64,000 nt of DNA from Patescibacteria group bacterium (lineage in GTDB: Bacteria > Patescibacteriota > Patescibacteriia > Patescibacteriales > WJLG01), in contig JAQTUZ010000004.1 of assembly GCA_028707065.1 (NCBI GenBank), positions 6,656-70,655 on the forward strand, in the 5' to 3' direction. Below the pieces are notes generated by a model. That model was not told the origin of the DNA. It saw nothing but the letters and a program-made list of their open reading frames with translations, and did not search any database. Positions 6,865-62,752 of this stretch are shown in pieces. Both the position numbers and the translations under genes were made by a program. Positions within the stretch are counted from its first letter, which is position 1, and every line of letters starts with the position of its first letter.

Positions 6865-8664
6865 TTAATGGGGCATTAAAATGACTTGGTGCTGCTGCCA
6901 GGACGAGGAAGCGGTAATCGTTTCATGGCTGGGATCGAAACCCAATTTGGAAACATCCAGGGTATAATCAGCGTCGGTTAAGCCGTCAAATAGCACTTGT
7001 CCCGACGGCACGCAGAGCGAAGAAAAAGTAAAATCGACTTCGCCGACGTTGGGCGTGAAAGTCGAACTGGCAGTGGCCAGATAAATTTTGTAGCGGAAAT
7101 AGCGCTTGTTATTATTAATGGCGCTGATATTGGTGTCAGTGGCCGTGTAATAAGTTGAAGCGGTGCCGTCCGGCCCCTTAAAGTCCCAGGTTAAATTGTC
7201 ATTATTGGTGGCGAGCTGCAAGCGGACGCTCGAAGTGCCGGCGCTCTCCGGCTGATCGGTCGGTGAAAATTCCAGCTGATAAAAATTGCTGACCGAACCG
7301 GTATCGAACGTCGAAGAAGTCAGATCTCCGGCCGCGGCAAATAAGCCGGCATTGTTTTTTAATTTTATTTCTCCGGCCGGGTCAGCCGTTTCAATATTGC
7401 CGTCGGAGCTGGAATAAGAAGTTTGGTCGATAAAATTTTCCTGGCCCGAGCCGCCCGACCAATCAGACTGCCGCAAGAATCCCCGCCCGGTGATCAATTG
7501 TTTGGTCGAAGTTCCCAAAGACAATTCCACGGTGGCGCCGGAAAGCGGCTGGGTTGTGCCTCCTTGTTTGACGCTGACCAAAATACTATTGGGATTTTTG
7601 GGAGTGGCGACGATTTTTACCTCCTGGGTGCTGCCGGGCGCGAGCGAGAGAGGAATCGGGGAGATCGAACCGGCCAAATCGCGGGTAGTATCGGTGAAAG
7701 TCAGGGTGTAGGTGTCCCACTCGAGATCGTTGATGATTTTTAATCCGGTCCCGTCGGTGGTAAAATCATTTTGATATTTTAAAACATCGGGAGAGCCGAT
7801 CAGTTTGCTCCCCCGCAAATTAAAGGCGATATTGGCTACTGGCGCGCAAGTTTGAGTGACGCTTTCAATGTTAAGCGTCGCGACTCGGTCGATCATAAAA
7901 CTGGTTTGTGTTACTTGCTGGGTGAGGACGGTCGCGTCCGGCATCGTCGGACTGGGATTAGTGGAAGAGCCCATCGGATAGGTCCGGTCTTGCGAATAGC
8001 CGCTTTTGCTGACGAAGATTTTATAGACGTTGGCGCCCGGCGGCACGTCGACGATCGTGAGAATGCCGTCGTTGTTGGTGACATCATTGATTATTCTCGG
8101 CGGCTCGGCCTCGTTGTTTTCGATGTGGACTTCAGCTTCCGGCACCGGCTGGCCGTTGGCGTCAAAAACGCGGACAAAAAGCGCGCCGTTGGTGGTGGAA
8201 TTTTCCAAATTTTTCGGGGCGATGTATTCGGTGTAAATCTGCGCCGGAAAGCGGGAATTGCCGGGCACGGAAATTTTCAGTTCCATCCGCTTATAGTCGG
8301 CCGGCGAAGTATCATTCGGAGTGCCGCCGATGGTTCCGTCGAACGGATCATCAATATTGCTTATGAATGTTTCTACCAGAAAATTAAAATTATCGCGCGC
8401 GATATTTTGCAGGGGCGGTATTTTTCCGAGCGGGATGCCGCTCAACAGGCCGACATCGGCATAAGGCAGGTTGTGGGCGATTTCGAATTGCTCATTGGCT
8501 AACGCGGCGGAGGAGACGAGCATTCTTGATGTTTCAACCAAGCGGGCCGCCATTTCAAACGCCCCGTAAATACCTACGGTGAAAAGCAAAAAAACCGCCA
8601 GGCCCACGATACCTTCGATCAGAGTAAAACCGGCGGCGCTTGATTTTAGTTTGGGTTTTTTCAT
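6865..8664 (-). CDS. giant (600 aa) prepilin-type pseudopilin with carboxypeptidase-regulatory-like beta-sandwich region
   Basis: Start MKKPKLKSSAAG|FTLIEGIVGLAVFLLF at 8664. The 767-aa ORF-track call runs 504 nt further into pilC and was trimmed. An internal segment (FVRVFDANGQPVPEAEVHIEN…GILTIVDVPPGANVYKIFVSKSGY) looks CarboxypepD_reg-like. Confidence 0.7.
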   Translation of the reverse strand: MKKPKLKSSAAGFTLIEGIVGLAVFLLFTVGIYGAFEMAARLVETSRMLVSSAALANEQFEIAHNLPYADVGLLSGIPLGKIPPLQNIARDNFNFLVETFISNIDDPFDGTIGGTPNDTSPADYKRMELKISVPGNSRFPAQIYTEYIAPKNLENSTTNGALFVRVFDANGQPVPEAEVHIENNEAEPPRIINDVTNNDGILTIVDVPPGANVYKIFVSKSGYSQDRTYPMGSSTNPSPTMPDATVLTQQVTQTSFMIDRVATLNIESVTQTCAPVANIAFNLRGSKLIGSPDVLKYQNDFTTDGTGLKIINDLEWDTYTLTFTDTTRDLAGSISPIPLSLAPGSTQEVKIVATPKNPNSILVSVKQGGTTQPLSGATVELSLGTSTKQLITGRGFLRQSDWSGGSGQENFIDQTSYSSSDGNIETADPAGEIKLKNNAGLFAAAGDLTSSTFDTGSVSNFYQLEFSPTDQPESAGTSSVRLQLATNNDNLTWDFKGPDGTASTYYTATDTNISAINNNKRYFRYKIYLATASSTFTPNVGEVDFTFSSLCVPSGQVLFDGLTDADYTLDVSKLGFDPSHETITASSSWQQHQVILMPH

Positions 8665-12504: not shown

Positions 12505-12714
12505 TATTCAACCGCAGGTCAAGACCCGCCCCCCTATCTTTTCTGTTGGGTGTCCCCGCCACAAGTGGACGAGATCTTTATCGGCGCTCGCTCGGAAATA
12601 ATCCCCGCGAGGCGCGGGATCATTTCACTCACTCGCTTGATAAGCAAGGTTATCGGCGCTCGCTCGGAAATAATCCCCGCGAGGCGCGGGATCATTTCAC
12701 TCACTCGCTTGATA
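12505..12714 (-). repeat. copy 1 of a ~136-nt structured intergenic element (reverse orientation, with an internal duplication)
   Basis: The reverse complement aligns along its length with 44223-44358 and 62522-62657: TATCAAGCG…GAAAT(A/G)ATCCCGC-loop-GCGG(G/A)GATTATTTC…AGAAAAGAT…TTGA(A)TACC. Confidence 0.85.
12579..12714. repeat. perfect 64-nt direct repeat x2 (period 72 nt)
   Basis: TATCGGCGCTCGCTCGGAAATAATCCCCGCGAGGCGCGGGATCATTTCACTCACTCGCTTGATA occurs at 12579-12642 and 12651-12714, separated by AGCAAGGT. Confidence 0.95.
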
Positions 12715-12747
12715 ATAAAAAAAGACCGGTCGCGAGATCGGTCTTTT
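12715..12747. terminator. bidirectional intrinsic terminator-like hairpin
   Basis: A-run, AGACCG-N10-CGGTCT, then T-run. Confidence 0.6.
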
Positions 12748-29677: not shown

Positions 29678-32443
29678 ATGCCGAAAAACAAGAAACCCGC
29701 GAAATTATCTTCCGTCCGCCCTGGGCGGACTACGGCGGACAAGCCCGCCTCCGCCAAGGCTACGGCGGACAAGGGCGGAAAAAAGCATAAAGTCGAGAGA
29801 AAAGAGGAGAAAGAAAAGAAAGTGGATAAAAAATCCATAGCTATTCCTGTTGGCGAAGTTGCGGCCGATAAAGCGGAGAAGAAGCAGCCTAAGCTGGAAA
29901 ATCCCGTTTCCGCCAAGGCTATGGGGGACAAGCCGGAGGACAAGGGCGAGATGGTCGGGCTGCAGCCTAAATCCGGCATGGGACAATCACGGACCATGTA
30001 TGGCTTGGTGCAAACCCAGCCGATCGTCGAAGAAATGAGCCGGTCATATTTGGATTACGCGATGAGCGTAATTGTTTCGCGCGCCTTGCCTGACGTCCGC
30101 GACGGCTTGAAACCGGTGCACCGCAAGATTTTATACGCGATGTGGGATATCGGCTTGCGCGCCGGCGGTAAATTTAGAAAATCAGCTACGGTCGTCGGCG
30201 AGGTCTTGGGCAAATATCATCCGCACGGCGACAGCGCCGCTTATGAATCGATGGTCCGCATGGCGCAGGATTTTTCCATGCGCTATCCGCTCGTCAAAGG
30301 CCAGGGAAACTTCGGTTCGATGGACGGCGATTCGGCCGCGGCCATGCGTTATACCGAAGCCAAGCTCTCGGCGATTTCCGAGGAGATGCTTTTTGATATT
30401 GATAAAAATACTGTTGATTTCATACCGACTTATGATGGTTCGCATCTTGAGCCGAGCGTTCTGCCATCCAAATTACCCAATCTTTTATTGAACGGCACCA
30501 TGGGCATCGCCGTCGGCATGTCCACGGAAATCCCGCCGCATAATTTGCGCGAACTTTCCGACGCCATCGCTTATCTGATCGAAAAACCGGATGCGACAGT
30601 CGAAGATCTCTGCCAATTCGTCAAAGGCCCGGATTTCCCGACCGGCGGAATTATTTATAATCAGAAAGATATCGAATCGGCTTACGGGACGGGCAAAGGC
30701 GGGATCGTGATGCGCGGCGTGGCCGAGATCGAAGAAATGAAAGGCGACAAATTTCAGATCGTCATTTCCGAAATACCCTATCAGGTTAATAAGGCGACTT
30801 TAGTGGAAAAGATCGCCGAGTTAGTGACAGAGAAAAAGATCGATGGCATCCGCGATTTGCGCGACGAATCCGACCGCGAGAAAAGCGTGCGCATCGTGAT
30901 TGAATTAAAGAAAGATGCTTATCCGAAAAAAGTTTTGAACGCCTTGTTCAAGATGACCGCCCTGCAATCAACCTTTCATGTCAATATGCTCGCCTTGGTC
31001 GACGGCATCCAGCCCAAGGTTTTGAATTTGAAATCGATTTTGGAAGAATATATCAAGCATCGCGAAGTGGTGGTCAGGCGCCGGACGCAATATGATCTGG
31101 ATAAAGCCAAGGATCGCGCCCATATTTTGGAAGGCTTGGTGATCGCTTTGGAAAATATCGATGCCGTCATCAAGACGATCAAAGCTTCCCGCGACAAGGA
31201 TGACGCGAAAATAAATCTGATCAAGAAATTCAAGCTGACCGAACGGCAGGCGATCGCCATTTTGGAAATGAAACTCCAGCAATTGGCCAATCTGGAAAGA
31301 TTGCGCGTCGAGGAAGAACTGAAAGAAAAGAAAAAATTGATCGCCGAATTGGAAGCGATCTTAAGATCAAAAACTAAAATATTAAGCATCGTCAAAACGG
31401 AATTGAAAGAATTGGCTGATAAATACGGCGATGAGCGCCGCACCCAAGTCGTCGCCCGCGGCGTTAAGGATTTTAGCATTGAAGATCTGGTGCCGAACGA
31501 AGAGGCGATCGTGATGATGACCCGCGATGGCTATATCAAGCGCCTGCCGCCTGATACGTTCAAACAGCAGGAACGCGGCGGCAAAGGCGTGATCGGCTTA
31601 TCGACCAAGGAAGAAGATACGGTGGAATTCATGTTCACCACCATGACTCATACTGATCTGCTATTTTTTACTACCAAGGGGCGTGTTTTCCAATTAAAGG
31701 CTTATGAGATTCCCGTGGCCTCTAGAACGGCCAAGGGCACGCCGATCGTTAACTTCCTTCAATTATTGTCCGAAGAAAAAATAACTTCCACTTTGCCTTT
31801 GGACAAGATCGTCGGCGCGGAATATTTATTCTTTGCCACCGAGCAAGGCTTGGTGAAAAAAGTCAAGCTGGAAGCTTTTGCCAATGTCCGCCGCTCCGGA
31901 TTGATCGCCATTAAAATAAAAGGCGAAGATAAATTGATCTGGGCCAAGCCGACTTCTGGCACTGACGATATCCAATTGATCACTTCCGAAGGCCAGTCGA
32001 TCCGTTTTGCCGAAGATGATGTTAGAGAAATGGGCCGCAATGCCGCTGGCGTCCGCGGCATCCGCCTCAAGGGCAAGGATGTGATGGTCGGCATGGGCGT
32101 AATTTCCACTGATAAAGAAAGAGTGAAAAAATATCAATTGATCAGCATTATGGCCAACGGTTTTGGCAAGCGCTCGCCGCTTTCTCTCTATAAAGTTCAG
32201 GGCCGCGGCGGTTCAGGCATCCGCACCGCGCATGTCACTGACAAGACCGGCAAATTAACCAACGCTTTCGTAGTCAATGCCGAAACTATGGCTGACCGCG
32301 ACCTCATTATTATTTCTGAAAAAGGCCAGGTGATCCGTCTGCCGTTCAAGCAGGTTAACGAACTCGGCCGCGACACCCAGGGCGTCCGGGTGATGCGCTT
32401 CAAGGAAGAGGGCGACAAGGTCGCCTGCGTAACCTGGGCCTAG
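29678..32443 (+). CDS. gyrA: DNA gyrase subunit A (start ambiguous; possible ~100-aa Lys/Ala-rich N-terminal extension)
   Basis: [33 protein letters not shown], the active-site region AAMRYTE, and C-terminal beta-pinwheel repeats. Alternative in-frame ATGs at 29951, 29978 and 29996 would give a canonical N-terminus. Confidence 0.95.
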
Positions 32444-32517
32444 CCCCCCTCCTTTCGAAGGAGGACCCCCCTCCTTTTCAAGGAGGGGTTTGGGGGTGGT
32501 TCTGGGGGTGGTTCTGC
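32444..32517. repeat. GC-rich palindromic element, intergenic reference copy (two hairpins plus a GGGGGTGGTTCT x2 tail)
   Basis: CCCCCCTCCTTTCGAAGGAGG, then CCCCCCTCCTTTTCAAGGAGGGG, then TTTGGGGGTGGTTCTGGGGGTGGTTCTGC directly after the gyrA stop. Confidence 0.9.
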
Positions 32518-32567: not shown

Positions 32568-32601
32568 GGCAGAATCTCCTCTCGGGGGATTCTGCCCTTT
32601 T
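32568..32601 (+). terminator. intrinsic terminator downstream of gyrA
   Basis: GGCAGAATC-N11-GATTCTGCC followed by CTTTT. Confidence 0.7.
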
Positions 32602-44168: not shown

Positions 44169-44221
44169 GTCCGTTTCAATCACTGTGTTGCAAAACATGG
44201 TGGTCGAAACGGACTTTTTTA
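44169..44221 (+). terminator. intrinsic terminator (long loop)
   Basis: GTCCGTTTC-N28-GAAACGGAC followed by TTTTTT. Confidence 0.6.
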
Positions 44222-44222
44222 T

Positions 44223-44358
44223 TATCAAGCGAAGCGAGTGAAATAATTCCGCTACGGCGGAGATTATTTCCGAGCGAGCGATGATAAATACCTCGTCCGC
44301 TGGTGGCGAGGATACCTTTTAGAAAAGATGGGGCGAGTGCCTGCCCCGCGATTGAATA
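44223..44358 (+). repeat. copy 2 of the ~136-nt structured intergenic element
   Basis: TATCAAGCGAAGCGAGTGAAATAATTCCGC-TAC-GGCGGAGATTATTTCCGAGCGAGCGATGATAAATACCTCGTCC…GGCGAGGATACCTTTTAGAAAAGATGGGGC…GCCCCGCGATTGAATA. Confidence 0.85.
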
Positions 44359-44496
44359 CCATTTATTATTACAATTAAGAAATTGATTTAATTGGCAAAA
44401 AACAAGGGGTAAGATATAATATATAACAAAGAACAGGGAACAAAGAGCAATGCGTTAATAATTATTTTATACTCTTTGATTTATGTTCTTTGATCA

Positions 44497-51723: not shown

Positions 51724-54700
51724 ATGGAACAAGAATTAAATCCAAACCAAGGCCAAGACCTGGCTGGGCGTAATAAAGAGGATGAGGCAGCGTTATTAAA
51801 GGCAGAGGAAAAAATTAAAAACCTCGCTTTTAAAGACGAACCCGCTACGCCGGATTTCCAGGAAAATTTGCAAAATCGGATTTTGGCGGCGCGCCATCGT
51901 CATTTTTCTATGTCCGAATTTTTAAACAAGCTCGCCAAAGGATTGATTTTTATGTTTGACACCAAGGCTTTTGTCCCGGCCGTGGCCGTTTTTTTGATCA
52001 TTGCCGTCGGCTTGAGCCTGACCATGCCCTGGCTGCCGCGGCAAGCGGGCGTTAATAATCCCTGGGGGAAGATCTCCCAATTGGTTATCAACCCGGCCTA
52101 CGCGCAGGATAATTTTTCCGCCGAGGCGACCATTTCCGACAGCTTGGGCGTTGGCGCCGATACGGCTTTTATCATTAAAAGCAAAGAGGCGATTGACGAG
52201 CAAACTCTGCGGGCGAACATAACTTTACAACCGACGACCGAATTTTCCTTAACCAAGATCGATGATCATACTTATCAAGTAATTCCGGCGCAAGCTTTGG
52301 CGGCCAAGAAAGTTTATAGCTTGAAGATCGCCAGCGCTTATGTCGATCAAAGCGGCGCCACCGTCGAGCGCGATTATTCCTGGGCCTTCCAGGTCAAAGA
52401 TATTTTTAAGGTTTTGAATTCGATCCCGGGCAATCAGGCCAATGGCGTGCCGTTGGATGCCGGAATTGAAGTGACTTTTTCCAACGAAAACTTCAGCAAT
52501 TACGAACAAGCGTTCAAGATCGAGCCGGCCATTGCCGGGCGTTTTGAGATTCACAAGCGCACTTTGGTTTTTGTGCCCAAAGCTTTGGAGGCGGGGATGA
52601 TCTATACCGTGACCATCAATAAAGATTTGCTGAAAGTTACGGGGAGCGAAGCCAAGCTCGCGGAAAATTATGTCATTCAATTTGAAACCGATCCGGCCGG
52701 AAAAAAACGCGGCGAGTATTCCGAATTCAATTTCCAAAATAATTTTAACGAGATCTATACCGAACGCGCGCCGGCGCTGGCTGTCAATCTATACAACATC
52801 AAACAGGAAACTTTTGCCGTCGAAGTTTACGCATTTTCCGGCGCGGACGGATTTATTGCCGCCCTGGAAAAGTCGCAAAAAATTCCCTATTGGGCGCAGT
52901 ACAATCGCGCTGTCTACAATACCGACGTTTCCGCCTTGACTAAAGTTTCCTCGTTTTCCATTCCTTTGTCGCCTTTTGGCTACAACAAATACTTGGTGTT
53001 TCCCGACAAGATCGCCAAGGGTTTTTATGTCGTTCAGGTCAATATCAACGGCGTTTATCTTCAGACATTTATGGAGGTTTCCGATTTGACCAATTATACG
53101 ACCGTGACTGATACCAATACTTTGGTTTGGCTCAACAATATCAAAACCAAAGGACCGGCGGCCGGGGCGAAGGTAAAAATTATCGGCACGGACAAGCAGA
53201 CGGTTACCGGAAGCGACGGAACGGCCGTGATGCCGACCAGCTGGCTGTCTGCCGGCACCACCAGCGACCGCACTTACTTGCTGATCGACGCGGGAGAAAA
53301 AACGATCGTGCCGATCAATTTCAATTATCAAAACACCGCGCCAACGGGCGTCATGCCTTTGAGCGCCGCTTCTAAATTCTGGTATTATTTTTATACCGAT
53401 CGGATGACTTACCAGCCGGGCGACACGGTCAGCTATTGGGGCTTTGTCAAACCACGGGAAGGAGTGAAAAGCTCTTCGACGGTCACGATCAAATTATTCG
53501 GCTGGCAAAGTTATTACGATTATTACAATGACCCGGTGCCGCTCTTGCAAACCGCGGCGCAGCTTGATCCTAACTTTACTTTTACCGGCAAGATCGATCT
53601 GGGGCGTTTATCCGCCGGGTATTATTATTTGGAATATTTTATCGGCGACCAGATGATCGGCAGCCGCGGTTTGAACATCGAGAACTATGTCAAACCGGCT
53701 TATAAAGTGGAGGCGAACGCCGACCAGCACGCGGTTTTTGCGGGGCAGACCCAGTCGATCGCGGTCAAGGCCAGCTTTTTCGAAGGCACGCCGGTTCCTA
53801 ATCTGGCTTTAACTGACCCGAACGATAACGGGCAATTAAAAACCAACGCTTTGGGCGAAGCGATCAAAACTTTTAAGGTCGATCCGGTTTCCGGCGACTA
53901 CGGCAGCAACTGCAATTATTTTTATCCGGTCGCGTCCGAGGAAGCCGATATTTCCGCCAGCGCTTGCTACACTGTTTTCAATTATAGCGTCGTCCCCAAG
54001 GGGGAACTGGTGAAAACGGACGGAGCCGATCAGGCGAAATTGCAATTAAACGTGAAAAAGGTGGATATCGCCAAAGCCAACGTGGTCGGGGCGACCGAAG
54101 ATCAATTCTTGCACGAAGCCGCTCCGGGCATGCCCGTAACCGTTTCGGTCACGGAAATTTCTTATCAGGCCGTTTCCACCGGACAGTATTATGATTTCTT
54201 CAATAAGATCGTGCGTAATACCTATCGCTACAATGAGATCAGAAATAATATCGCCTCGGCCAAGGGCAAAACCGATTCGGCCGGCCAATACCAGTATTCA
54301 TTTCCGATCAAGCCGAAAAACAGTTATGAAGTCAATGTCACGATCAAGGATGTTAACGGCCAGGATATCAATGAGCGATATTATATCTATTACAGCCAGT
54401 ATAATTTTGACGATCAAAGCGATTATTATAATTTGGGATTCAAAGATCAGAAGAAAACGGATTTTTCCTTGGGCGAACAGGTGCAGATCCAATATAAGAA
54501 TAAGGATCAGCTCTTGCCTGTTGCCCCCGGCCATTATCTTTTCTATCGCCTGTTCAAAGGATTGGTGGATTATCAGATCGGCGGCAGCGCGGAATATAAT
54601 TTCAATTTTACCGACCGCTTCTTGCCCGGCGTGTACGTGATGGGAGTTTATTTTGACGGTGAAACTTACCATCGGCCGGGAAGTTACGGTTATTGGGAGT

Positions 54701-57297
54701 CATATTCCCCCGGGCTGTATGTGCCTTTCAAGCAAACCGACCGGGAATTAAAAGTCGAGGTGACGCCGGATAAAGACAAATATCAGCCGGGAGGCGAGGT
54801 GAAGTTGGCTGTCAAAGTTACCGACAAATCCGGCAAGCCCGTGGCGGCGAGCGTCAATCTTAATCTGGTTGACGAGTCTTATTACGCGATCTATCCGGAA
54901 AACGTCGATGCCCTGGGAGGATTATACGGCAATCGGGTCGAGGACGGCGAGTTAGTGACTTATATTTCCAATCCGGCGCCGGCGCTTGGCGCCGAAGTCG
55001 CGGAAAGGGGCGGCTGTTTTCTCGCGGGCACCAAAATAACCATGGCCGACCGGTCGCTTAAAAATATCGAAGATGTTAAAATCGGCGACGAGGTGCTTAC
55101 CTTTACCAATGAAACGGCGCGGAGTTTGGTGGCGGGAAAAGTAACCAAGACCTATGTCCACGAAGTCGGCGAGTATTTGATCATTAATGATAAATTAAAA
55201 ATCACTCCGATCCACCGCGTTTTCTTGAACGGCCAATGGCGGATGATCGGCGAAGCCAAGGTCGGCGACTGGCTTTTGGACGAGCAAGGCGAAAAAGTTA
55301 AGATTGCCAAGATCGAGGACCGCCGCGGTCTGTTCAAAGTTTATAATCTGACGATCGAGCCTTATCATACTTTTTTTGCCGAAGGTTTTTATGTCCATAA
55401 TGATAAAGGCGGCGGCGTGCGTTCGCTGTTCGTGGATACGGCCGTGTTTATGAACGTCAACACCGGCGCTGATGGCGCGGCAATCGCCGCCTTCAAGCTG
55501 CCGGATAATATCACTTCCTGGCGCGTGACCGCGCAAGCTTTAAGCGGCGATCTTTACGCCGGCGACAAGGTCATCAATCTCAAATCGTCTCTGCCGGCCT
55601 TCGTCAACACCACTTTCGCCAAAGAATATTTAACGGTCGATAAGCCGATCGTAAAAGTGCGGGCTTTCGGCGACGCGCTGCGCGATAATGATCCGGTGCA
55701 ATTCAAAATGGACGCGCCGACTTTGAATTTTTCGAGCACGACCGTCGGCCAGGCCTTTGTTGCTTCCTATTTTAAGCTCCCGCCATTGGCGATCGGCGAG
55801 CACTCGATCACCACGGCGATCAAAGCCGGCGGCAACCAGGACGCGGTTTTGGAAAAAGTGAAGGTGCTCGATACTCGTTTTAAAGAAACCAAAACCCAGT
55901 TCTATGAATTATCGCCGGGCCTTAAAGCGGCCGGGGCGCCCGATGGCCAGACTAATTTGATTTTCAGCGACAAAAACCAAGGCCGATTCTACGGCCAGCT
56001 TTCCTATTGTTTCTTTTGTTCGGGCGGCGATCGGGTCGATCAAAAATTGGCCCGGGTCGTATCGGCCGATCTCTTGAAGAAATATTTCGGCGAAGAACCC
56101 TTTAACCCGGAAACTTTTAACGGGGCGATGTATCAAACCGATGACGGCGGCGTCGCTTTGCTGCCCTATGCTTCTTCGGATTTTGAATTGTCAGCCAAGG
56201 TCGCTTTTGTCGCCGGAGATTATTTCGATAAGACCCGGCTGACCAATTATTTTTACAAGATTTTGACGGCCGATGATTCGACCCGCGAACAAGTCGGGGT
56301 TTCTCTTTTCGCCTTGAGCGGTTTGGGCGAACCGATCTTGTCGCCGGCGGAAAATTTCGCCGCGCTGCCCGATCTCACCGCTAAGGAAAAATTGTATATC
56401 GGCATTGCCCTGAATCATTTGGGCGACGCGGAAACGGCGCGCGCTATCTATTCGGCGGTAATAAAAGACAAAGGAGAAAAATTAGATCCTTATCTGCGGG
56501 TCAAAGTTTCGGATTCCAACGATGAGATTTTGGCGGCGACCTCGCTGGCGGCGATCTTGGCGGGCGGGCTCTTAATTCCCGATCATGAACAATTATGGAA
56601 TTACGCGGAAAGTAATTATACCCGGAATATCTCGATTGATCTGGAAAAGCTGGCCTATGTTTCCGAAACTTTGCCCAAACTTACTCCGGGCGAAGTATCC
56701 TTTACCATCAATCTGCCCGGAAGAAAAATCGACAAAACTCTCTCGCGCGGCGAAAGTTTCCGCCTGAAAATCGAACCGGCTGATCTGGGAGTGATTTCAT
56801 TCTCCAATATCAAAGGCCAGGTCGGCTTGACCAGTTCTTACCAGGCGCGCGAAGCCAATATCGCGCCTCGTGATGATTCTTATGTTTCCTTGCGGAGAGA
56901 ATACTATGTCAACGGCGTTAAGACCAATACCTTCAAAGAAAGCGACTTGGTGGAGATCAGGATGTACCCGTCCTTCAAACCCGGCGCCTTAAATTATGGT
57001 TATCAAATTACCGATCTGCTCCCTTCCGGGTTGAGCGTGATGACCAATCTTTATTCGCGCGGCATGAATTACTCCTGCAGCAATTATTATCCTTACGAAG
57101 TTAACGGGCAGACGGTTAAGTTCTCGATCTGGAAGGACTGGAATAAAGGTTCATATTGCCATACGGATTATTTCAGTTATTTCGCCCGCGTCGTTAATCC
57201 GGGCGAATACCGGGCCGAATCGGCCGTGATCCAGTCGTTCGAGGCAAGCACCGTCAAGAATTATTCCGGCGCGAATACGGTGTTGATCGAAAAATAA
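51724..57297 (+). CDS. membrane-anchored alpha-2-macroglobulin-like protein (1857 aa) with an inserted Hint domain
   Basis: Starts 4 nt after the sigma-factor stop. N-terminal ~80 aa, then a TM helix (AFVPAVAVFLIIAVGLSLTM). MG-type domains (FYTDRMTYQPGDTVSYWGFV; VEVTPDKDKYQPGGEVKLAVKVTDKSGKPVAASVNLNLVDESYYAI). A2M block (VRSLFVDTAVFMNV…FKLPDNITSWRVTAQA). I saw no CxEQ thioester motif. Confidence 0.8.
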   Translation: MEQELNPNQGQDLAGRNKEDEAALLKAEEKIKNLAFKDEPATPDFQENLQNRILAARHRHFSMSEFLNKLAKGLIFMFDTKAFVPAVAVFLIIAVGLSLTMPWLPRQAGVNNPWGKISQLVINPAYAQDNFSAEATISDSLGVGADTAFIIKSKEAIDEQTLRANITLQPTTEFSLTKIDDHTYQVIPAQALAAKKVYSLKIASAYVDQSGATVERDYSWAFQVKDIFKVLNSIPGNQANGVPLDAGIEVTFSNENFSNYEQAFKIEPAIAGRFEIHKRTLVFVPKALEAGMIYTVTINKDLLKVTGSEAKLAENYVIQFETDPAGKKRGEYSEFNFQNNFNEIYTERAPALAVNLYNIKQETFAVEVYAFSGADGFIAALEKSQKIPYWAQYNRAVYNTDVSALTKVSSFSIPLSPFGYNKYLVFPDKIAKGFYVVQVNINGVYLQTFMEVSDLTNYTTVTDTNTLVWLNNIKTKGPAAGAKVKIIGTDKQTVTGSDGTAVMPTSWLSAGTTSDRTYLLIDAGEKTIVPINFNYQNTAPTGVMPLSAASKFWYYFYTDRMTYQPGDTVSYWGFVKPREGVKSSSTVTIKLFGWQSYYDYYNDPVPLLQTAAQLDPNFTFTGKIDLGRLSAGYYYLEYFIGDQMIGSRGLNIENYVKPAYKVEANADQHAVFAGQTQSIAVKASFFEGTPVPNLALTDPNDNGQLKTNALGEAIKTFKVDPVSGDYGSNCNYFYPVASEEADISASACYTVFNYSVVPKGELVKTDGADQAKLQLNVKKVDIAKANVVGATEDQFLHEAAPGMPVTVSVTEISYQAVSTGQYYDFFNKIVRNTYRYNEIRNNIASAKGKTDSAGQYQYSFPIKPKNSYEVNVTIKDVNGQDINERYYIYYSQYNFDDQSDYYNLGFKDQKKTDFSLGEQVQIQYKNKDQLLPVAPGHYLFYRLFKGLVDYQIGGSAEYNFNFTDRFLPGVYVMGVYFDGETYHRPGSYGYWESYSPGLYVPFKQTDRELKVEVTPDKDKYQPGGEVKLAVKVTDKSGKPVAASVNLNLVDESYYAIYPENVDALGGLYGNRVEDGELVTYISNPAPALGAEVAERGGCFLAGTKITMADRSLKNIEDVKIGDEVLTFTNETARSLVAGKVTKTYVHEVGEYLIINDKLKITPIHRVFLNGQWRMIGEAKVGDWLLDEQGEKVKIAKIEDRRGLFKVYNLTIEPYHTFFAEGFYVHNDKGGGVRSLFVDTAVFMNVNTGADGAAIAAFKLPDNITSWRVTAQALSGDLYAGDKVINLKSSLPAFVNTTFAKEYLTVDKPIVKVRAFGDALRDNDPVQFKMDAPTLNFSSTTVGQAFVASYFKLPPLAIGEHSITTAIKAGGNQDAVLEKVKVLDTRFKETKTQFYELSPGLKAAGAPDGQTNLIFSDKNQGRFYGQLSYCFFCSGGDRVDQKLARVVSADLLKKYFGEEPFNPETFNGAMYQTDDGGVALLPYASSDFELSAKVAFVAGDYFDKTRLTNYFYKILTADDSTREQVGVSLFALSGLGEPILSPAENFAALPDLTAKEKLYIGIALNHLGDAETARAIYSAVIKDKGEKLDPYLRVKVSDSNDEILAATSLAAILAGGLLIPDHEQLWNYAESNYTRNISIDLEKLAYVSETLPKLTPGEVSFTINLPGRKIDKTLSRGESFRLKIEPADLGVISFSNIKGQVGLTSSYQAREANIAPRDDSYVSLRREYYVNGVKTNTFKESDLVEIRMYPSFKPGALNYGYQITDLLPSGLSVMTNLYSRGMNYSCSNYYPYEVNGQTVKFSIWKDWNKGSYCHTDYFSYFARVVNPGEYRAESAVIQSFEASTVKNYSGANTVLIEK
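55015..55401 (+). other. Hint / bacterial-intein-like (BIL) domain, 129 aa, no endonuclease
   Basis: CFLAGTKI (block A), ITPIH (block B TxxH), VYNLTIEPYHTFFAEG (block F), FYVHN (block G). The next residue is Asp. Confidence 0.8.
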
Positions 57298-57307
57298 ATC
57301 TTATCTT

Positions 57308-59266
57308 ATGGCGGGAAGAAGGATCATCATTTTAATTTTTGTTTTAGGCGCATCGGCGGTCATCTTGGCCGCCGGTGCGTTTGTATTGGAGAAAAAGAAT
57401 TTTTCCGCGGAAAAGGCGATCAGCCCGGATCGGCCGGCTAATGAAGCGGTGAATGAATCGGCGCATATTTTTCCTTATGATCGTAATCTTTTCAATTCAG
57501 CCATCAGTAAAAATTATCTTGAGCGAATGGCGACGAGCGGGCCGGTCATTGCCGGCCTGGTGCCGCATCATGAGTTGGCCGGGGATCTGGCCGCGGAATT
57601 TTTTTCCTCGCTGGCGCAAAAACAAAAAGTTAATAATTTCATTGTCATCGGACCCTTGCACTCGGATCAAGCGGTCGGCCCCGCGGTAAGCGGGCGGTTT
57701 ATCTGGGATGCCGGGTTTGGCCAGGTGGAAAATAATTATGAAATACTGGACGATCTGGTCGCGGCTCATTTGGTGGTTTATGACGAGAATGCGGTGCGGA
57801 GCGAGCACGCTCTTTATAATATGGCGCCGTTCATCGCCCATTATTTTCCGGAGGCGAAGATCGCGCCGATCGCCTTGACTTCGCGTAATTCTCCGGAACA
57901 ATGTTTCGCTTTGGCTCAGGCTCTGCAGAAATATCTGGCCCAAGGGGATACGGTGCTGGTCGCCTCGATCGATTTTTCCCATTATCTTCCGGCTGATCAA
58001 ACTCCGGCCAAAAATTTGCGAATGATCGAGTTGATAAAAAATAAGGATTACCAGACGATTGCCGGCCTGGCCAATGATTATTTGGATTCGCCCCCTTCGC
58101 TTATCACCTTGCTTAAGGCCGCTGATCTGTCGGATGCCGGCGTTAATATTTTAGCTTCGACCAATTCCGGAGAAATTACCGGGACGCCGGTTCTTTCTTC
58201 AACCAGCTATATCAGCGCCTTTTTTGCCGTCCCCCTCCTTTCAAATGAGTCTGTCCCCGCGAAGGCGGGGAAGGGGTCTGGGCCCGTCTCGGTTTTACCT
58301 ACAGCGTCCAGTAGTCCCTTGAAGCTGCTTTTTTTCGGCGACATTATGCTTGATCGCCAGGTCGGCGAAAAGATCAAGGCTTCGGGAAGCTTGGACTGGA
58401 TCTTCAAGGGCTTGAATTCGACCGGAATTTTTCAAGGCAATGATATTGTTTCCGCCAATCTGGAAGGCGCGGCCACTGATAATGGCGCGCATTATCCGCC
58501 GGCCTTGGTTTTTGATTTTGCTTTCGCGCCCAAGCTGGTCGGAGAGCTCGCGAAATATAATTTTAATTATTTTAATCTGGCCAATAATCATTTAGCCGAT
58601 CAGGGCAAAAATGGTATAATAGAGACAGAGAAAAATCTTACTGATCTGGGTTTTGTTTTTGCCGGCTGCCAGGATCGCCAAGTCGGCGACTGCACGGCCA
58701 AAATTGTGGAGAAAAGCGGCCGCCAGATCGGGTTGATCGGCGCGAGCATGGTTTATGGCGCGCTTGATGAAAACCGCCTGATCGCCGAAGTAAAAAAGCT
58801 GGCCAGTTCCACCGATTTAGTGGCGGTGCAAATACATTGGGGAACGGAATACAAGCACGAGGCGGCGGCCAACCAAACCGTTTTGGCGCGCAAATTGATC
58901 GATGCCGGCGCTGATATCATCATCGGCCATCATCCGCATGTGGTCGGCGGGGTGGAACTATATAAAAATAAGCCGATTTTTTATTCGCTGGGGAATTTCG
59001 TTTTTGATCAGTATTTTTCTCTTGATACGCAGGAAGAGTTGGGAGTGAGGATAGCCGTAACCACCCCCAAACCCCTCCTTGGAAAGGAGGGGGGCGAGGG
59101 GAAAAATTTCCAGATCGATCTTTTGCCGATCAAATCGGAAGCCGGACGCTTGCGCCTGATGAATAACGCGGAGAAAGATAAATTTTTGACCAAGCTGGCG
59201 GGCTGGTCGATCGGCGATAAAAATTTTTTGTCGGAAGTCGGAGCGGGTAAAATAGTTATTGAATAA
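57308..59266 (+). CDS. fusion protein: Memo-like (AmmeMemoRadiSam B-type) N-domain plus CapA/PGA_cap metallophosphatase C-domain
   Basis: N-terminal TM helix. Memo-like blocks are GLVPHHELAG and ASIDFSHYLP. CapA-like blocks are LLFFGDIMLDR, ANLEGA, NLANNHLADQG, GHHPHVVGG and YSLGNFVFDQ. Confidence 0.7.
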   Translation: MAGRRIIILIFVLGASAVILAAGAFVLEKKNFSAEKAISPDRPANEAVNESAHIFPYDRNLFNSAISKNYLERMATSGPVIAGLVPHHELAGDLAAEFFSSLAQKQKVNNFIVIGPLHSDQAVGPAVSGRFIWDAGFGQVENNYEILDDLVAAHLVVYDENAVRSEHALYNMAPFIAHYFPEAKIAPIALTSRNSPEQCFALAQALQKYLAQGDTVLVASIDFSHYLPADQTPAKNLRMIELIKNKDYQTIAGLANDYLDSPPSLITLLKAADLSDAGVNILASTNSGEITGTPVLSSTSYISAFFAVPLLSNESVPAKAGKGSGPVSVLPTASSSPLKLLFFGDIMLDRQVGEKIKASGSLDWIFKGLNSTGIFQGNDIVSANLEGAATDNGAHYPPALVFDFAFAPKLVGELAKYNFNYFNLANNHLADQGKNGIIETEKNLTDLGFVFAGCQDRQVGDCTAKIVEKSGRQIGLIGASMVYGALDENRLIAEVKKLASSTDLVAVQIHWGTEYKHEAAANQTVLARKLIDAGADIIIGHHPHVVGGVELYKNKPIFYSLGNFVFDQYFSLDTQEELGVRIAVTTPKPLLGKEGGEGKNFQIDLLPIKSEAGRLRLMNNAEKDKFLTKLAGWSIGDKNFLSEVGAGKIVIE

Positions 59267-59293: not shown

Positions 59294-59860
59294 ATGAAAT
59301 TTTTTGAACCAAAAAGCCGGGGGGCGAATTTATTCCGCGATCTGGCGATTATTCTTTTTAGCATCATTATTACGATTTTGTTGATAAAAACCGGCGTCCT
59401 GAACACTTTATTGGCCGGAACTCAACAGGTAAAAATATTAGGAAGTTTTATCGCGGGAATGTTTTTTACTTCCATCTTCACGACCGCGCCGGCAACGATA
59501 ACTTTGGCGGAGCTCGCCCGCTCCAATTCTATTTGGCAGGTGGCGATTTTCGGGGGGATAGGGGCGACGATCGGGGATTTGGTTATTTTTCAATTTCTTA
59601 AAAATGAATTGGTCGAAGATTTTTCCGGCTTGGTTAAGAAGTACGGTTCGAAAAGAGTTATCGCGATCTTCCACCTGAAATTTTTGCGCTGGTTTTTTGC
59701 TTTTTTGGGAGCGCTGGTGATCGCCTCGCCCTTGCCCGATGAATTAGGGCTGGCAATGATGGGGGTGTCTAAGGTCAAAACCCGGGTCTTTATTCCTCTG
59801 TCTTTCGCGCTTAATACCTTGGGAATTTTGATTATCGGCCTGATCGCCAAATCATTATGA
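59294..59860 (+). CDS. membrane protein (4-5 TM helices)
   Basis: 188 aa and hydrophobic. Overlaps the next gene by 4 nt (ATGA). Confidence 0.55.
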   Translation: MKFFEPKSRGANLFRDLAIILFSIIITILLIKTGVLNTLLAGTQQVKILGSFIAGMFFTSIFTTAPATITLAELARSNSIWQVAIFGGIGATIGDLVIFQFLKNELVEDFSGLVKKYGSKRVIAIFHLKFLRWFFAFLGALVIASPLPDELGLAMMGVSKVKTRVFIPLSFALNTLGILIIGLIAKSL

Positions 59861-61005
59861 AAATATCCAAGAATTACTTTATGGCCGTGGCGGTTTTGGT
59901 CGGCGCGATTACCGGCGCCGGAGTTTTTGCCATGCCTTTTGTTTTGACTCATTCCGGTCTTTGGCCGTTTGTTTTTTGGTTTCCCATTTTGGTCGCGGTC
60001 CAATGCCTGATCCATCTTCTTTTTGCCAAAGTCATTTTGTCCACCAAGGGCTTGCACCGCGTTCCCGGCTACACGGAAATTTATGCCGGAAAGAATTGGA
60101 AAAAAATTGTTTCGATTTTTGCCGTAATCGGCGGCTGGGGCACGATCCTGGCCTATATAATTTTGGGCGGCGTCTTTTTTAATCAGTTTTTTTCCCCGCT
60201 GATCGGGGGCAGCCTTTTCACTAATTCGCTCATTTTTTTCGCCTTGGAAACTGTGGTGGTCATTGCCGGATTAAAGACGATCGCGGGATCGGAAATGATT
60301 TTTTCCTTTTTACTCCTTATTTTATTCGTGGTGCTGTCGGTCAAATGCTTCGGCCGGTTTGATCTGAGCAATTTTACGGCGGTCAATTGGGAGGATTTTT
60401 TTCTCCCTTATGGCGTGATTTTTTTCGCGATTGGCGGCGATGCGGCCATTCCGGAAGTGGTAAAACTTTTGGATAAGGAAAAGGAAAAAATAAAAAGCGC
60501 GATCTTGTGGGGGACGATCTTGCCCGCGGTTATGATGTTTATTTTTGTGATCGCCACGGTCGGGGCAATGGGCGCGTTGACTACCGCAGACGCTTTGTCT
60601 GGATTGAACAAATTTTTCGGCAATGGCTTTGTTTCCATCTCCCTGCTTTTCGGCTTAATTTGCATTGCCACTTCGTTCTGGGTATTTGCCCAAGCGGTGC
60701 GGGAAATATTCTGGTGGGACTTTAAGATCAATAAGTATTGGTCGCTGGTTTTAGCCGTCGGCGTTCCGCTGGCATTTTTTATTTTCGGCTTTACTAATTT
60801 GACGACAGTCGTTTCTCTTTCCGGCGCGATCACCAGCGGCGTTTTAGGAATTATTCTGATTTCTCTGACCGCGGCCGTGGACCGTGAGGGGCAAAAAAAA
60901 TCGCCCATCGCCATTAAAACTTCCCGGCCGTTGGCGATCGTTTTGTATTCTCTTTTCATTGTCGGGTTTTTGACCGAGCTGTGGACGATAATTTTTAAAT
61001 TATGA
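59857..61005 (+). CDS. amino-acid permease-like transporter (~11 TM helices)
   Basis: The N-terminus …AVAVLVGAITGAGVFAMPFV… is typical of amino acid/aromatic amino acid permease families. 382 aa and polytopic. Confidence 0.65.
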   Translation: MKISKNYFMAVAVLVGAITGAGVFAMPFVLTHSGLWPFVFWFPILVAVQCLIHLLFAKVILSTKGLHRVPGYTEIYAGKNWKKIVSIFAVIGGWGTILAYIILGGVFFNQFFSPLIGGSLFTNSLIFFALETVVVIAGLKTIAGSEMIFSFLLLILFVVLSVKCFGRFDLSNFTAVNWEDFFLPYGVIFFAIGGDAAIPEVVKLLDKEKEKIKSAILWGTILPAVMMFIFVIATVGAMGALTTADALSGLNKFFGNGFVSISLLFGLICIATSFWVFAQAVREIFWWDFKINKYWSLVLAVGVPLAFFIFGFTNLTTVVSLSGAITSGVLGIILISLTAAVDREGQKKSPIAIKTSRPLAIVLYSLFIVGFLTELWTIIFKL

Positions 61006-61571
61006 AAATCGCGGTAATTTCCGATCTTCACGATAATCTGGTCAACTTGAGAAAATGTCTCTCTTGGTGCGGGCAAAATAATATCGAGAAGCTGATCTGC
61101 TGCGGCGACGTGACCAACGCGGAGACGCTGGGAATTCTTTCCCGGGAATTTAAGGGAGAAATTTTTTTAGTCCGCGGCAATTTGGAGATCTACCAAGAAG
61201 AAGAAATCGAGCCTTATAAAAATTATACTTATGGCGGGCGGCTTGCCGGCCATAGCCTTGGCGACGGCCGGACGGCGATTTGGGAGATTGATGGAAAAAA
61301 AGTCGGCGTCTGCCATGAACCTTTTTTTATCAATCAAGTTTTAGCAAAAGCAAAATCCCCCCTCCTTTCTAAGGAGGGGTCTGGGGGTGGTTCTGCAAAG
61401 GCGGCGGACATCGTCTTTTACGGCCATACTCATAAGCCCTGGATCGAAGAAAAAGACCATGTTCAAATAGTGAATCCGGGAACTTTGGGCGGAGTCTTCA
61501 CTCAGCCGACTTTTGCTGCTTGGGATACCGTGAGTGGTAAACTGGAATTAAAATTGCTGAATAATCTCTAA
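61002..61571 (+). CDS. YfcE/MJ0936-type metallophosphoesterase
   Basis: MKIAVISDLHDN, CCGDV, VRGNLE and FYGHTHKP motifs. Carries a 14-aa insertion encoded by the GC-rich palindromic element. Confidence 0.8.
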   Translation: MKIAVISDLHDNLVNLRKCLSWCGQNNIEKLICCGDVTNAETLGILSREFKGEIFLVRGNLEIYQEEEIEPYKNYTYGGRLAGHSLGDGRTAIWEIDGKKVGVCHEPFFINQVLAKAKSPLLSKEGSGGGSAKAADIVFYGHTHKPWIEEKDHVQIVNPGTLGGVFTQPTFAAWDTVSGKLELKLLNNL

Positions 61572-62429: not shown

Positions 62430-62522
62430 TTAAGTGGGTGAATTCCCTGTTTAATGGTGTTAGTCGAAGCAGTATGGGCTTTGCTCGAACGAAGCAATCG
62501 TTTTGGCAAAGCCCTTTTTTTT
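62430..62522 (+). ncRNA. candidate ~90-nt small RNA (promoter-to-terminator unit without an ORF)
   Basis: Bounded by the promoter at 62397-62425 and the terminator GGGCTTTGC-N21-GCAAAGCCC-TTTTTTTT (62476-62522). The loop contains CGAAGCAATCG, as does the terminator at 62854-62903. Confidence 0.35.
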
Positions 62523-62657
62523 ATCAAGCGAAGCGAGCGAAATAATCCCGCGACAGCGGAGATTATTTCCGAGCGAGCGATGATAAATACTTCGTCCGGC
62601 GGCACGCGAGGATACCTTTCAGAAAAGATGGGTGCGGGGATTGCCTTGCGCTTGATA
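62522..62657 (+). repeat. copy 3 of the ~136-nt structured intergenic element
   Basis: Terminal inverted repeat TATCAAGCG…CGCTTGATA. Internal hairpins are GAAATAATCCCGC-GACA-GCGGAGATTATTTC, CTTCGTCC…GCGAGG and GCGGGG-ATTG-CCTTGC. Confidence 0.85.
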
Positions 62658-62752
62658 CCATTCGTTTGTTATAATTATCTTGGTTCATTCAGCCCCTTTT
62701 CTGGCATGAAAAGGGATATCCGCATTTCAACCCCTTTAAAGAGAGGTGAATT

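Follow-up and report, generated by a model that had tools for sequence, protein, structure and literature searches.

The 64-kb window analysed here (64,000 nucleotides of contig JAQTUZ010000004.1 of a Patescibacteria group bacterium; all positions are those of this stretch) carries a gene encoding a fusion of a Memo-like and a CapA/PGA_cap-like protein, and within this gene lies one copy, hereafter copy B, of a 36-nt G/C-rich repeat that is read in frame as part of the protein. The gene, the repeat copy and the parts of the latter are as follows:

57308..59266, plus strand: host gene, Memo-like and CapA/PGA_cap-like fusion, 652 aa (Pfam; synteny with locus L123)
59059..59094, minus strand, which is the G-rich motif strand: copy B of the 36-nt repeat, CC-CCCCTCCTT-TCC-AAGGAGGGG-TTTG-GGGGTGGTT
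59084..59092, minus strand: pyrimidine (Y) arm CCCCTCCTT, with 9/9 Watson-Crick pairs to 59072-59080
59072..59080, minus strand: purine (R) arm AAGGAGGGG (sequence, hairpin fold and triplex-motif scan)
59068-59071, minus strand: loop 2, TTTG (sequence)
59059..59067, minus strand: putative reverse-Hoogsteen arm GGGGTGGTT, mirroring the R arm, T in place of A
59057..59092, plus strand: 12 inserted codons VTTPKPLLGKEG, residues 584-595, without counterpart in L123 (alignments, AlphaFold)

A preliminary description of this DNA had placed a palindrome at 59061-59094, as the reverse complement of an element found elsewhere in the window, and had it translated in frame inside the CapA-like domain. 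The string CCACCCCCAAACCCCTCCTTGGAAAGGAGGGG is indeed present at 59061-59092, followed by GG through 59094, although the repeat unit begins 2 nt further to the left, at 59059. Codon 585 of the open reading frame (ORF) starts at 59060, and the stretch 59060-59101 is translated as TTPKPLLGKEGGEG, as had been described; the PLL-x-KEG core is likewise common to copy B and to the copy at 61357, which reads SPLLSKEGSGGGS in frame. The location needed correction in part: Pfam assigns Memo to residues 81-303 and PGA_cap to residues 339-568 of the host protein, so copy B lies beyond the end of the annotated domain, but alignment and structural modelling place it within the conserved folded C-terminal sheet, and in an alignment of 25 homologues high conservation runs on to the C-terminus beyond the Pfam envelope.

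That the segment is a repeat is evident from the window itself. The core CCCCTCCTTnnnAAGGAGGGG, i.e. CCCCTCCTT-nnn-AAGGAGGGG, occurs at three sites (32468, 59072 and 61359) when up to two mismatches are allowed, against a chance expectation of 0.00 in 100 dinucleotide-preserving shuffles. Positions 59059-59094 are complementary to 32466-32501 (97%) and to 61357-61392 (94%), the unit shared according to the repeat finder being 36 nt, and the G-rich tail GGGGTYTGGGGGTGG is found only in these three copies and in a tandem tail duplicate beside the first of them. In a triplex-motif scan copy B was among only three strong G/C motifs of the window. For its 9-bp hairpin, folding as DNA was computed to have a free energy of about -9.3 to -9.7 kcal/mol (ViennaRNA, only the hairpin being modelled).

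We then compared the host protein with its homologues, as the preliminary description had proposed. Among 25 aligned CapA homologues, 23 have a gap at the position of the insert, the nearest ones included (72-77% identity over the aligned domain), and in these 23 the DTQEELGV.I block directly joins the F.I.LLPIKS block, where the window protein has 12 additional residues; the segment is thus not aligned to conserved CapA residues. The locus L123 is syntenic: a gene for a large A2M-like protein that includes a Hint domain is accompanied by genes for a Memo-CapA fusion, a permease and a phosphoesterase. Its Memo-CapA orthologue is 644 aa long. When the two fusion proteins are aligned globally (460 identities in 661 columns), a single clean gap of 12 residues faces VTTPKPLLGKEG, and at the codon level this gap is 36 nt, the same length as the repeat unit. 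The AlphaFold model of the CapA part is of good quality (mean predicted local distance difference test score, pLDDT, 90.2; predicted template modelling score 0.90) and has a fold of the CapA/metallophosphatase type, the best match in the PDB being the lasso peptide epimerase MslH (8itg). The insert forms a loop between strands 246-255 and 270-281 (model-fragment numbering), and pLDDT falls below 50 at 260-266 and nowhere else. In the homologue P0003 a different insert (…HHPQTPPPAGGE…) occupies the same loop; judging by its peptide, it may be another copy read in another frame.

These data also bear on the simplest alternative, namely that the segment belongs natively to the conserved CapA-like domain and merely resembles the repeat. 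Such a part would be expected to be in frame, stop-free and within a folded domain, as the segment is. Against this, it has no counterpart in 23 of the 25 homologues or in the L123 orthologue, which is syntenic, its DNA is 94-97% identical to copies in unrelated contexts, and model confidence over it is low; the homologue and L123 alignments exclude a native segment, and we consider it scarcely credible. Since the segment is absent from 23/25 homologues and exactly 12 codons are missing in L123, it is to be regarded as a reverse-oriented in-frame copy of the repeat, and positions 59059-59094 very probably represent a recent, lineage-specific in-frame 36-nt insertion of a dispersed G/C-rich element.

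The remaining copies and remnants in the window are:

61357..61392, plus strand: copy C, sense, in the YfcE-type phosphoesterase gene 61002..61571, peptide SPLLSKEGSGGGS (repeat match, alignment)
32466..32501, plus strand: copy A, intergenic, the second hairpin of an array (repeat match; Pfam match of gyrA)
32448..32464, plus strand: tail-less partial hairpin CCTCCTT-tcg-AAGGAGG just 5' of copy A (sequence)
58230..58285, plus strand: decayed sense copy in the Memo-CapA linker, TCCCCCTCCTT-TCA-AATGAGTCT..., peptide VPLLSNES... (L123 comparison)

Of the three intact copies, two are therefore translated, as is one remnant. Copy C sits in a protein of 189 residues, the basic length of the family being 163; its site is empty in L123 and L124, and it falls in a low-pLDDT loop of the AlphaFold model (phosphoesterase residues 119-134). 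In L121 the same site holds another variant, CCCCTCC-ccg-GGAGGGG, followed by a small GC hairpin and then GGGGTGGGTTT. The array with copy A begins directly after the gyrA stop codon (TAG, 32441-32443), and the tail unit of copy A is duplicated at 32502-32516. In the linker remnant at 58230 the predicted hairpin has been lost, while the orthologous linker position in L123 (about 3674-3712) has an intact element, GCCCCCCTCCTTTCCAAGGAGGGGTCTCTCGGTGGTTCG, APLLSKEGSLGGS. Hence copies can stay in frame while the palindrome decays, and, with an old copy in the linker of both lineages, the region between the Memo and CapA domains is made partly of repeat DNA. In the window a separate hairpin, CCCCGC-gaag-GCGGGG, follows VPLLSNES in this linker.

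A second in-frame insert of the phosphoesterase, GRLAGHSLGDG (61236-61270), varies among lineages: P0123 shares it, P0126 has GPPSPDGFGEAS at this site, and most homologues have nothing there. This insert is GC-rich and contains no triplex motif, its fold is no better than that of shuffled sequences (z = -0.64), and it possibly belongs to another repeat family. An independent assembly, L171 (Logan assembly of SRR22315508), includes the phosphoesterase gene with copy C identical to that of the window, and its position 1 corresponds to window position 59065, inside copy B, suggesting that the repeat breaks short-read assembly graphs.

The element had been described as a plain palindrome. This is incomplete: the tail also mirrors the purine arm, which places the element among intrastrand triplex motifs. 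On the motif strand the order is Y arm CCCCTCCTT, a 3-nt loop, R arm AAGGAGGGG, a loop of 3-4 nt and tail GGGGTGGTT, the tail repeating the purine arm in mirrored order (AAGGAGGGG | GGGGTGGTT), with T in place of A. In each of the three intact window copies, the Watson-Crick stem and the mirror tail both match at 9/9 positions. Mirror symmetry is not a product of replication; it is the symmetry needed by a third strand that binds antiparallel through reverse-Hoogsteen pairs (G*G-C, T*A-T, A*A-T).

A scan with the core only, using one genome per species, gave at least 120 loci, and the source genome is not among the matches listed. The loci listed span many phyla, with Chlamydiota, Bacteroidota, Nitrospirota, Acidobacteriota, Thiomargarita and several Patescibacteria among them, and in nearly all of them GGGG[T/A]GGT lies 3' of the hairpin, after a gap of 1-5 nt or a small extra GC hairpin. 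The same loci contain other Y/R stems whose tails mirror their own purine arm, A being kept or changed to T:

Stem variant AAGGGGAGG, mirror tail GGTGGGGTA
Stem variant AAGGGGGAGA, mirror tail AGAGGGGGTT
Stem variant GGGAGAGGG, mirror tail GGGTGAGGG
Stem variant AAAGGGGGA, mirror tail AGGGGGATTT
Stem variant GGGGAGAGGGG, mirror tail GGGGTGTGGGG

Overall, a perfect mirror tail within 25 nt was present in 215 of 299 asymmetric Y/R hairpins of the loci retrieved, compared with 18 for the direct-order control (for this element, the tail TTGGTGGGG) and about 10 for shuffled arms, a total that is partly circular because its 46 metagenome loci were fetched with a pattern that contains the tail. For stems outside the search pattern, which represent 27 distinct arms, the figures were 41/66 for the perfect mirror, 4 for the direct order and 2.2 for shuffled arms; these 66 stems are themselves unselected, yet some of them sit within tail-selected loci. 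The recurrence of near-identical stems in many phyla does not call for horizontal transfer, since 9-mer purine arms with at least six G number only about 130 and convergence is to be expected; we therefore set transfer aside as an explanation of this recurrence.

The covariation is also what separates a triplex arm from other roles of the tail. The sequence AAGGAGGGGTTTGGGGGTGG has four G-runs, so the tail could form a G-quadruplex with the purine arm, and the hairpin is stable by itself, so the tail could equally have no structural role. A quadruplex, however, needs no A/T interruption at the mirror position, yet the perfect mirror is found in 41 of 66 stems as against 4 in direct order, and an extra GC hairpin can stand in for loop 2 with the register of the tail kept. 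A quadruplex or a plain hairpin is accordingly an improbable account of the tail.

Nor does the repeat look like a functional element of mRNA, such as a Shine-Dalgarno/anti-Shine-Dalgarno hairpin causing pausing or internal starts, or an RNase or stability signal. Its arms do resemble CCUCCU and AAGGAGG, the RNA hairpin has an energy of -16 kcal/mol, and the palindrome would be present in mRNA whichever way the copy is oriented. On the other hand, there is no suitably spaced start codon downstream, family members with the same architecture have stems unlike Shine-Dalgarno sequences (e.g. GGGAGAGGG and AAAGGGGGA), copies lie in unrelated genes as well as in intergenic DNA, and Rfam gave no match over the whole window at gathering thresholds. 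No T-run follows the hairpin of any window copy, as an intrinsic terminator would have; a terminator-like hairpin downstream of gyrA is a separate feature at 32568-32596. Moreover, according to literature quoted in PMC4666352, purine-motif triplexes do not form in RNA, so that the conserved tail would be a DNA-level feature with a role in single-stranded DNA (replication, repair or transposition) and not in mRNA. An mRNA function is thus very unlikely.

Units of hairpin and mirror tail were also seen in viral contigs from IMG/VR (L173-L212; e.g. L185, L186 and L209), up to six per 23.6-kb contig, with the tail present in 47/50 instances. Some of these units are tailed on both sides, ACCACCCC-tat-CCCCTCCTT-gcc-AAGGAGGGG-aaaaa-GGGGAGGTT, in which case either strand could form the fold. 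A Thiomargarita metagenome-assembled genome (MAG; L069, 7048-7312) has a head-to-tail tandem array with a 41-nt period, CCCCTCCTTACCAAGGAGGGGTTGGGGGTGGTTAAGTTCCT, comprising four exact-core units at 7128-7312 with a degenerate unit between them and a unit of opposite orientation just before, at 7048; the repeat therefore also expands as a minisatellite.

Class II intrastrand triplex motifs, defined by a pyrimidine arm, a purine arm and a reverse-Hoogsteen arm, have been catalogued in thousands of genomes (Holder et al. 2015, PMC4666352). When the ITxF definition is applied, the minus strand of copy B has the class II order of Y arm, loop, R arm, loop and 3' reverse-Hoogsteen arm. Its dimensions (9/9 in the stem and 9/9 in the mirror, loops of 3 and 4 nt) are within the limits of the class (stem of 6-15 nt, at most one mismatch, loops of 1-6 nt); alternatively, copy B may be read as a 10-nt stem with one mismatch each in stem and mirror and loops of 3 and 2 nt. 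The triads allowed (G*G-C, T(A)*A-T, antiparallel to the purine arm) are found at 9/9 positions, and the tails of 27 other stems track their own arm. By sequence criteria the element is a class II purine-motif intrastrand triplex motif. The E. coli member of this class is TM-ECO, which is the same as BoxC and the PIT element and forms a stable triplex as single-stranded DNA, as observed by circular dichroism and NMR (PMC4666352); the BoxC/PIT elements of E. coli are attributed there to Hoyne et al. 2000. The TM-ECO pattern, CCCTCNCCC N3-6 GGGNGAGGG N3 GGGNGAGGG, has no match in the window, so the present element is not TM-ECO proper.

A scan of metagenomes with a pattern of hairpin plus tail gave 46 low-GC contigs. 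We called a copy intragenic-like when its frame ran for at least 50 codons without a stop both before and after the core. This was so for 24 of 64 core instances in the metagenome contigs, for 5/13 in loci of named Patescibacteria genomes and for 3/4 in the window and L123. The criterion over-calls in high-GC genomes: of 15 candidates outside the candidate phyla radiation (CPR), only three (L081, L089 and L114) are clearly within a domain-bearing gene according to Pfam. In the following proteins Pfam domain matches flank the insert on either side, unless otherwise given:

Methionyl-tRNA synthetase (MetRS): two in-frame inserts
TsaD: several in-frame inserts, on two contigs
GatA-type amidase: in-frame insert
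Thiamine pyrophosphate (TPP) enzyme: in-frame insert
MgsA/RarA: an inverted pair in each of two lineages, at the same site
Class I aminoacyl-tRNA synthetase: in-frame insert
Mur ligase: in-frame insert
Lgt: in-frame insert
Beta-CASP nuclease: in-frame insert
UDP-glucose dehydrogenase: in-frame insert
TsaE: in-frame insert past the best-matching stretch (Pfam)
Staphylococcal-type nuclease: insert N-terminal to the sole domain match (Pfam)

The inverted pairs in RarA/MgsA, units of the triplex type on two different Patescibacteria contigs, lie in frame at about 7650-7760 in L148 and about 2400-2500 in L037, at the same position of the protein, with the insert peptides TTPKPLLKKEGSSRAPLLSKEGLGVV and TSPSPSLVRRGNATEPESLPLTKGELEEV, respectively, an arrangement within a gene that resembles a REPIN (a hairpin-forming doublet of repetitive extragenic palindromic sequences, REPs). 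Beyond Patescibacteria clear cases are few: an ornithine/diaminopimelate (Orn/DAP) decarboxylase in Chloracidobacterium, a GT2 glycosyltransferase in Nitrospinota and a FemAB protein in a gammaproteobacterium.

From copies B and C the preliminary description had concluded that the element codes independently of its orientation. The PLL-x-KEG peptide is the same both ways because a perfect palindrome with a 3-nt loop is read where the loop is a codon (CCC CTC CTT nnn AAG GAG GGG); the property is confined to this one frame, and the peptides of the asymmetric tail differ, with TTPK upstream of the core in antisense copies and GSGGGS downstream in sense copies. Orientation-independent coding is consequently an arithmetic symmetry of one frame and not biology. 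Related loci use all three frames, giving NHPQTPPxxGGG in antisense frame 1, PSLxRRG in frame 2 and PPxxGGxWG (also PPxxGG) in sense frame 1. Of the 32 intragenic-like copies of the low-GC sets, 17 are in frame 0, a modest excess in a small sample obtained with a biased pattern.

Such an excess might indicate that the inserted peptide has been co-opted, for instance as a flexible loop or linker, and that the copy is kept by selection at the protein level. The GSGGGS-like flexible stretch encoded by sense frame-0 copies and the old copy within the Memo-CapA linker of two lineages agree with this. The insert in CapA, however, is lineage-specific and its near-perfect repeat DNA suggests a young insertion, the same loops carry unrelated inserts in relatives, and the frame bias has the limits just mentioned, so we judge co-option to be quite improbable.

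From these results a mechanism may be proposed. The G-rich strand, d(CCCCTCCTTTCCAAGGAGGGGTTTGGGGGTGGTT), as single-stranded DNA can in principle fold into a 9-bp hairpin, whose tail would fold back onto the purine arm and form reverse-Hoogsteen pairs with it, giving six C-G*G and three T-A*T triads. Copies would land both in intergenic DNA, e.g. after the gyrA stop codon, and in genes, and those persisting in genes would be the ones with a length that is a multiple of three, a stop-free frame and a location in a surface loop or linker. The CapA insert VTTPKPLLGKEG would thereby extend a beta-hairpin loop by 12 Pro/Gly/Lys-rich residues and, by analogy with other gene-invading repeats, is most likely neutral or nearly so, i.e. 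selfish or hitch-hiking translated DNA; older copies would lose the palindrome and stay in frame, as may be seen in the linker remnant at 58230. The units on viral contigs suggest that phages could carry the element between hosts. We tentatively suggest, at somewhat less than an even chance, that triplex-motif repeats, described until now as enigmatic elements between the genes of E. coli and cyanobacteria, are active invaders of coding sequences, especially common in Patescibacteria/CPR, and that the spreading mechanism recognises the triplex fold and not a sequence tag. If so, fold recognition would explain why one architecture with dozens of stems occurs in many phyla and on viral contigs, and Pro/Gly-rich loops of 12-26 residues would have been repeatedly spliced into essential housekeeping enzymes.

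Several points weigh against the main reading, that of an inserted repeat of the triplex-motif class. The nearest comparator without the insert is only about 70% identical, making the timing of the insertion coarse, and the copy counts for the source genome are those of the 64-kb window. Triplex folding of the element is predicted from its sequence; for TM-ECO, in vivo dimethyl sulphate (DMS) footprinting gave no evidence of a triplex, and none was seen in double-stranded DNA (PMC4666352). The neutrality of the peptide is an assumption. No transposase was found among 45 ORFs of the window scanned with Pfam, several of which had no match; comparison of filled and empty sites revealed no convincing target-site duplication in CapA or phosphoesterase; and a flank profile of 146 copies gave no insertion target motif beyond a pyrimidine pair. 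With neither transposase, duplication nor target motif found, it is the presence and absence of the unit that argues for mobile insertion. A candidate duplication at the phosphoesterase site (GCAAAAGCAAAA before and GCAAAGGCGGCG after, 8/12 bases shared) was rejected because it does not fit the length difference.

A different route of spread would be that of a miniature transposon, either of the REP/REPIN type or a miniature inverted-repeat transposable element (MITE), mobilised in trans by a dedicated transposase (a REP-associated tyrosine (RAYT)/Y1 or a DDE enzyme), with the tail as a recognition tag and not a triplex arm. The element is short, palindromic and dispersed, related loci have inverted pairs 40-100 nt apart as in REPINs, the lack of a target-site duplication is what IS200/IS605-like single-strand transposition predicts, and intragenic REPs are documented in several species (PMC3733652). 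However, no GTAG or CGTC tag adjoins the hairpins of the three window copies, and in the 146-copy profile only the pyrimidine pair at -2/-1, directly 5' of the pyrimidine arm, is conserved. The terminal inverted repeats and target-site duplications of MITEs are not seen either, the element being only a hairpin with an asymmetric tail, and the Pfam-annotated ORFs of the window include no RAYT (Y1 transposase) or other transposase domain. A tag bound by a protein would not be expected to covary as a mirror of the stem over 27 variants in many phyla, and no promoter, terminator or transposon/mobile-element association was found for TM-ECO, the motifs being linked to local genomic instability (PMC4666352). 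A miniature transposon is therefore rather unlikely; the lack of a duplication together with dependence on a single-strand fold would be compatible with an HUH/Y1-type route or with one associated with repair or replication. In some Nitrospirota variants the last bases are GGTAG, but these lie at the distal end of the tail and have a polarity opposite to that of the REP tag.

To our knowledge, the function and mode of spread of BoxC/PIT/TM repeats have been unexplained since the 1990s. If our reading holds, it joins the literature on these triplex-forming repeats with that on palindromic repeats invading genes, and the question of how the motifs move becomes directly testable, because in-frame copies give pairs of filled and empty sites with boundaries readable to the base. 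There are also practical consequences: the 36-nt units appear to break short-read assemblies, as in the Logan contig starting within copy B, in-frame units inflate and distort protein alignments of uncultured bacteria, and the recurrent peptides PLLxKEG, NHPQTPP and GSGGGS could pass for conserved motifs.

Some other features of the window may be recorded. A second, unrelated intergenic repeat family is present at 12532-12715, 44216-44377 and 62515-62677 (about 85-160 nt, 71-93% identity), with a tandem duplication at 12578-12715, a long hairpin TTATCAAGCGAAGCGAG...CTCGCTCGCTTGATAA and no match in Rfam; the RNA fold of 44200-44380 has an energy of -58 kcal/mol (z = -3.5). The ORF 51724..57297 encodes an A2M/MG2-like protein of 1857 residues with a Hint/intein-like domain (PT-HINT, Vint; 55012-55402), which covers residues of about 1097-1226 (CFLAGT...VHN) between the bait-region domain and the A2M domain and is also found in the L123 orthologue. 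Between the CapA and permease genes, positions 59294-59860 contain a membrane-like ORF of 188 residues without a Pfam match, which is absent from the syntenic L123 and L121, while a 189-residue gene is found at the same position in the P0003 contig. ARAGORN detected no tRNA genes in the window. Of 32 2-kb bins, 30 have a positive GC skew, and cumulatively the skew climbs nearly throughout, with slight dips at 40-42 kb and 52-54 kb, suggesting that the window lies in one replichore.

Among known systems, the element is closest in architecture to TM-ECO/BoxC/PIT. Both have, on one strand, a 9-nt C-rich arm, a loop of 3-6 nt, a 9-nt G-rich arm, a 3-nt loop and a 9-nt G-rich mirror arm, with C-G*G and T-A*T triads and a length of about 36-37 nt; both are multi-copy with very high identity between copies, often form inverted pairs and have no known association with a transposase. 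They differ in the stem (CCCTCNCCC/GGGNGAGGG/GGGNGAGGG in TM-ECO vs CCCCTCCTT/AAGGAGGGG/GGGGTGGTT here) and in the host, a proteobacterium in one case and a Patescibacteria MAG in the other. Furthermore, TM-ECO is reported to be always intergenic in E. coli MG1655 (PMC4666352), whereas in-frame translation applies to two of the three intact window copies and to many of those on related contigs. H-DNA is similar in its mirror repeat, which here consists of the purine arm and the tail, and in the reverse-Hoogsteen pairing that is proposed. H-DNA arises from homopurine/homopyrimidine mirror repeats in duplex DNA under supercoiling; unlike it, the fold considered here needs single-stranded DNA, because all three arms are on one strand.

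In their residence within genes the copies resemble the Rickettsia palindromic elements (RPEs), which, in the accounts given in PMC10969869 and PMC3733652, lie in frame in unrelated, often essential genes (Ogata et al. 2000, 2002) at positions compatible with the protein fold, occur in intergenic DNA too, and are viewed as translated selfish DNA. In-frame insertion at fold-compatible positions was likewise found here in CapA, phosphoesterase and further genes. As described in those accounts, RPEs were first reported at about 150 bp (roughly 100-150 bp) and have longer conserved peptides, compared with 36 nt (12 aa) for the present element; it is by length and description, and not by comparison of consensus sequences, that we set it apart from the RPE families. 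Nor are RPEs described in these sources as mirror-repeat or triplex motifs, and their host lineage (Rickettsia) is another. The intragenic GTAG/CGTC REPs are palindromes of 20-40 nt found as singletons or inverted dimers in several species, in genes for tRNA synthetases and DNA repair among others, adding 20-30 aa per dimer (Di Nocera et al. 2013, PMC3733652). They share with the present repeat the short palindrome, the single or inverted-dimer state and an occasional location within genes, and differ in the flank, which is a GTAG/CGTC tetranucleotide in REPs and a mirror copy of the purine arm here. A limited search of the literature found nothing on in-frame triplex-type motifs or such repeats in Patescibacteria/CPR, and searches of full texts for the sequence strings of the element returned only unrelated papers. 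The combination of triplex-type repeats with translation within housekeeping genes, seen prominently in Patescibacteria, thus appears to be undescribed, while in-frame residence within genes is itself already paralleled by RPEs and intragenic REPs.

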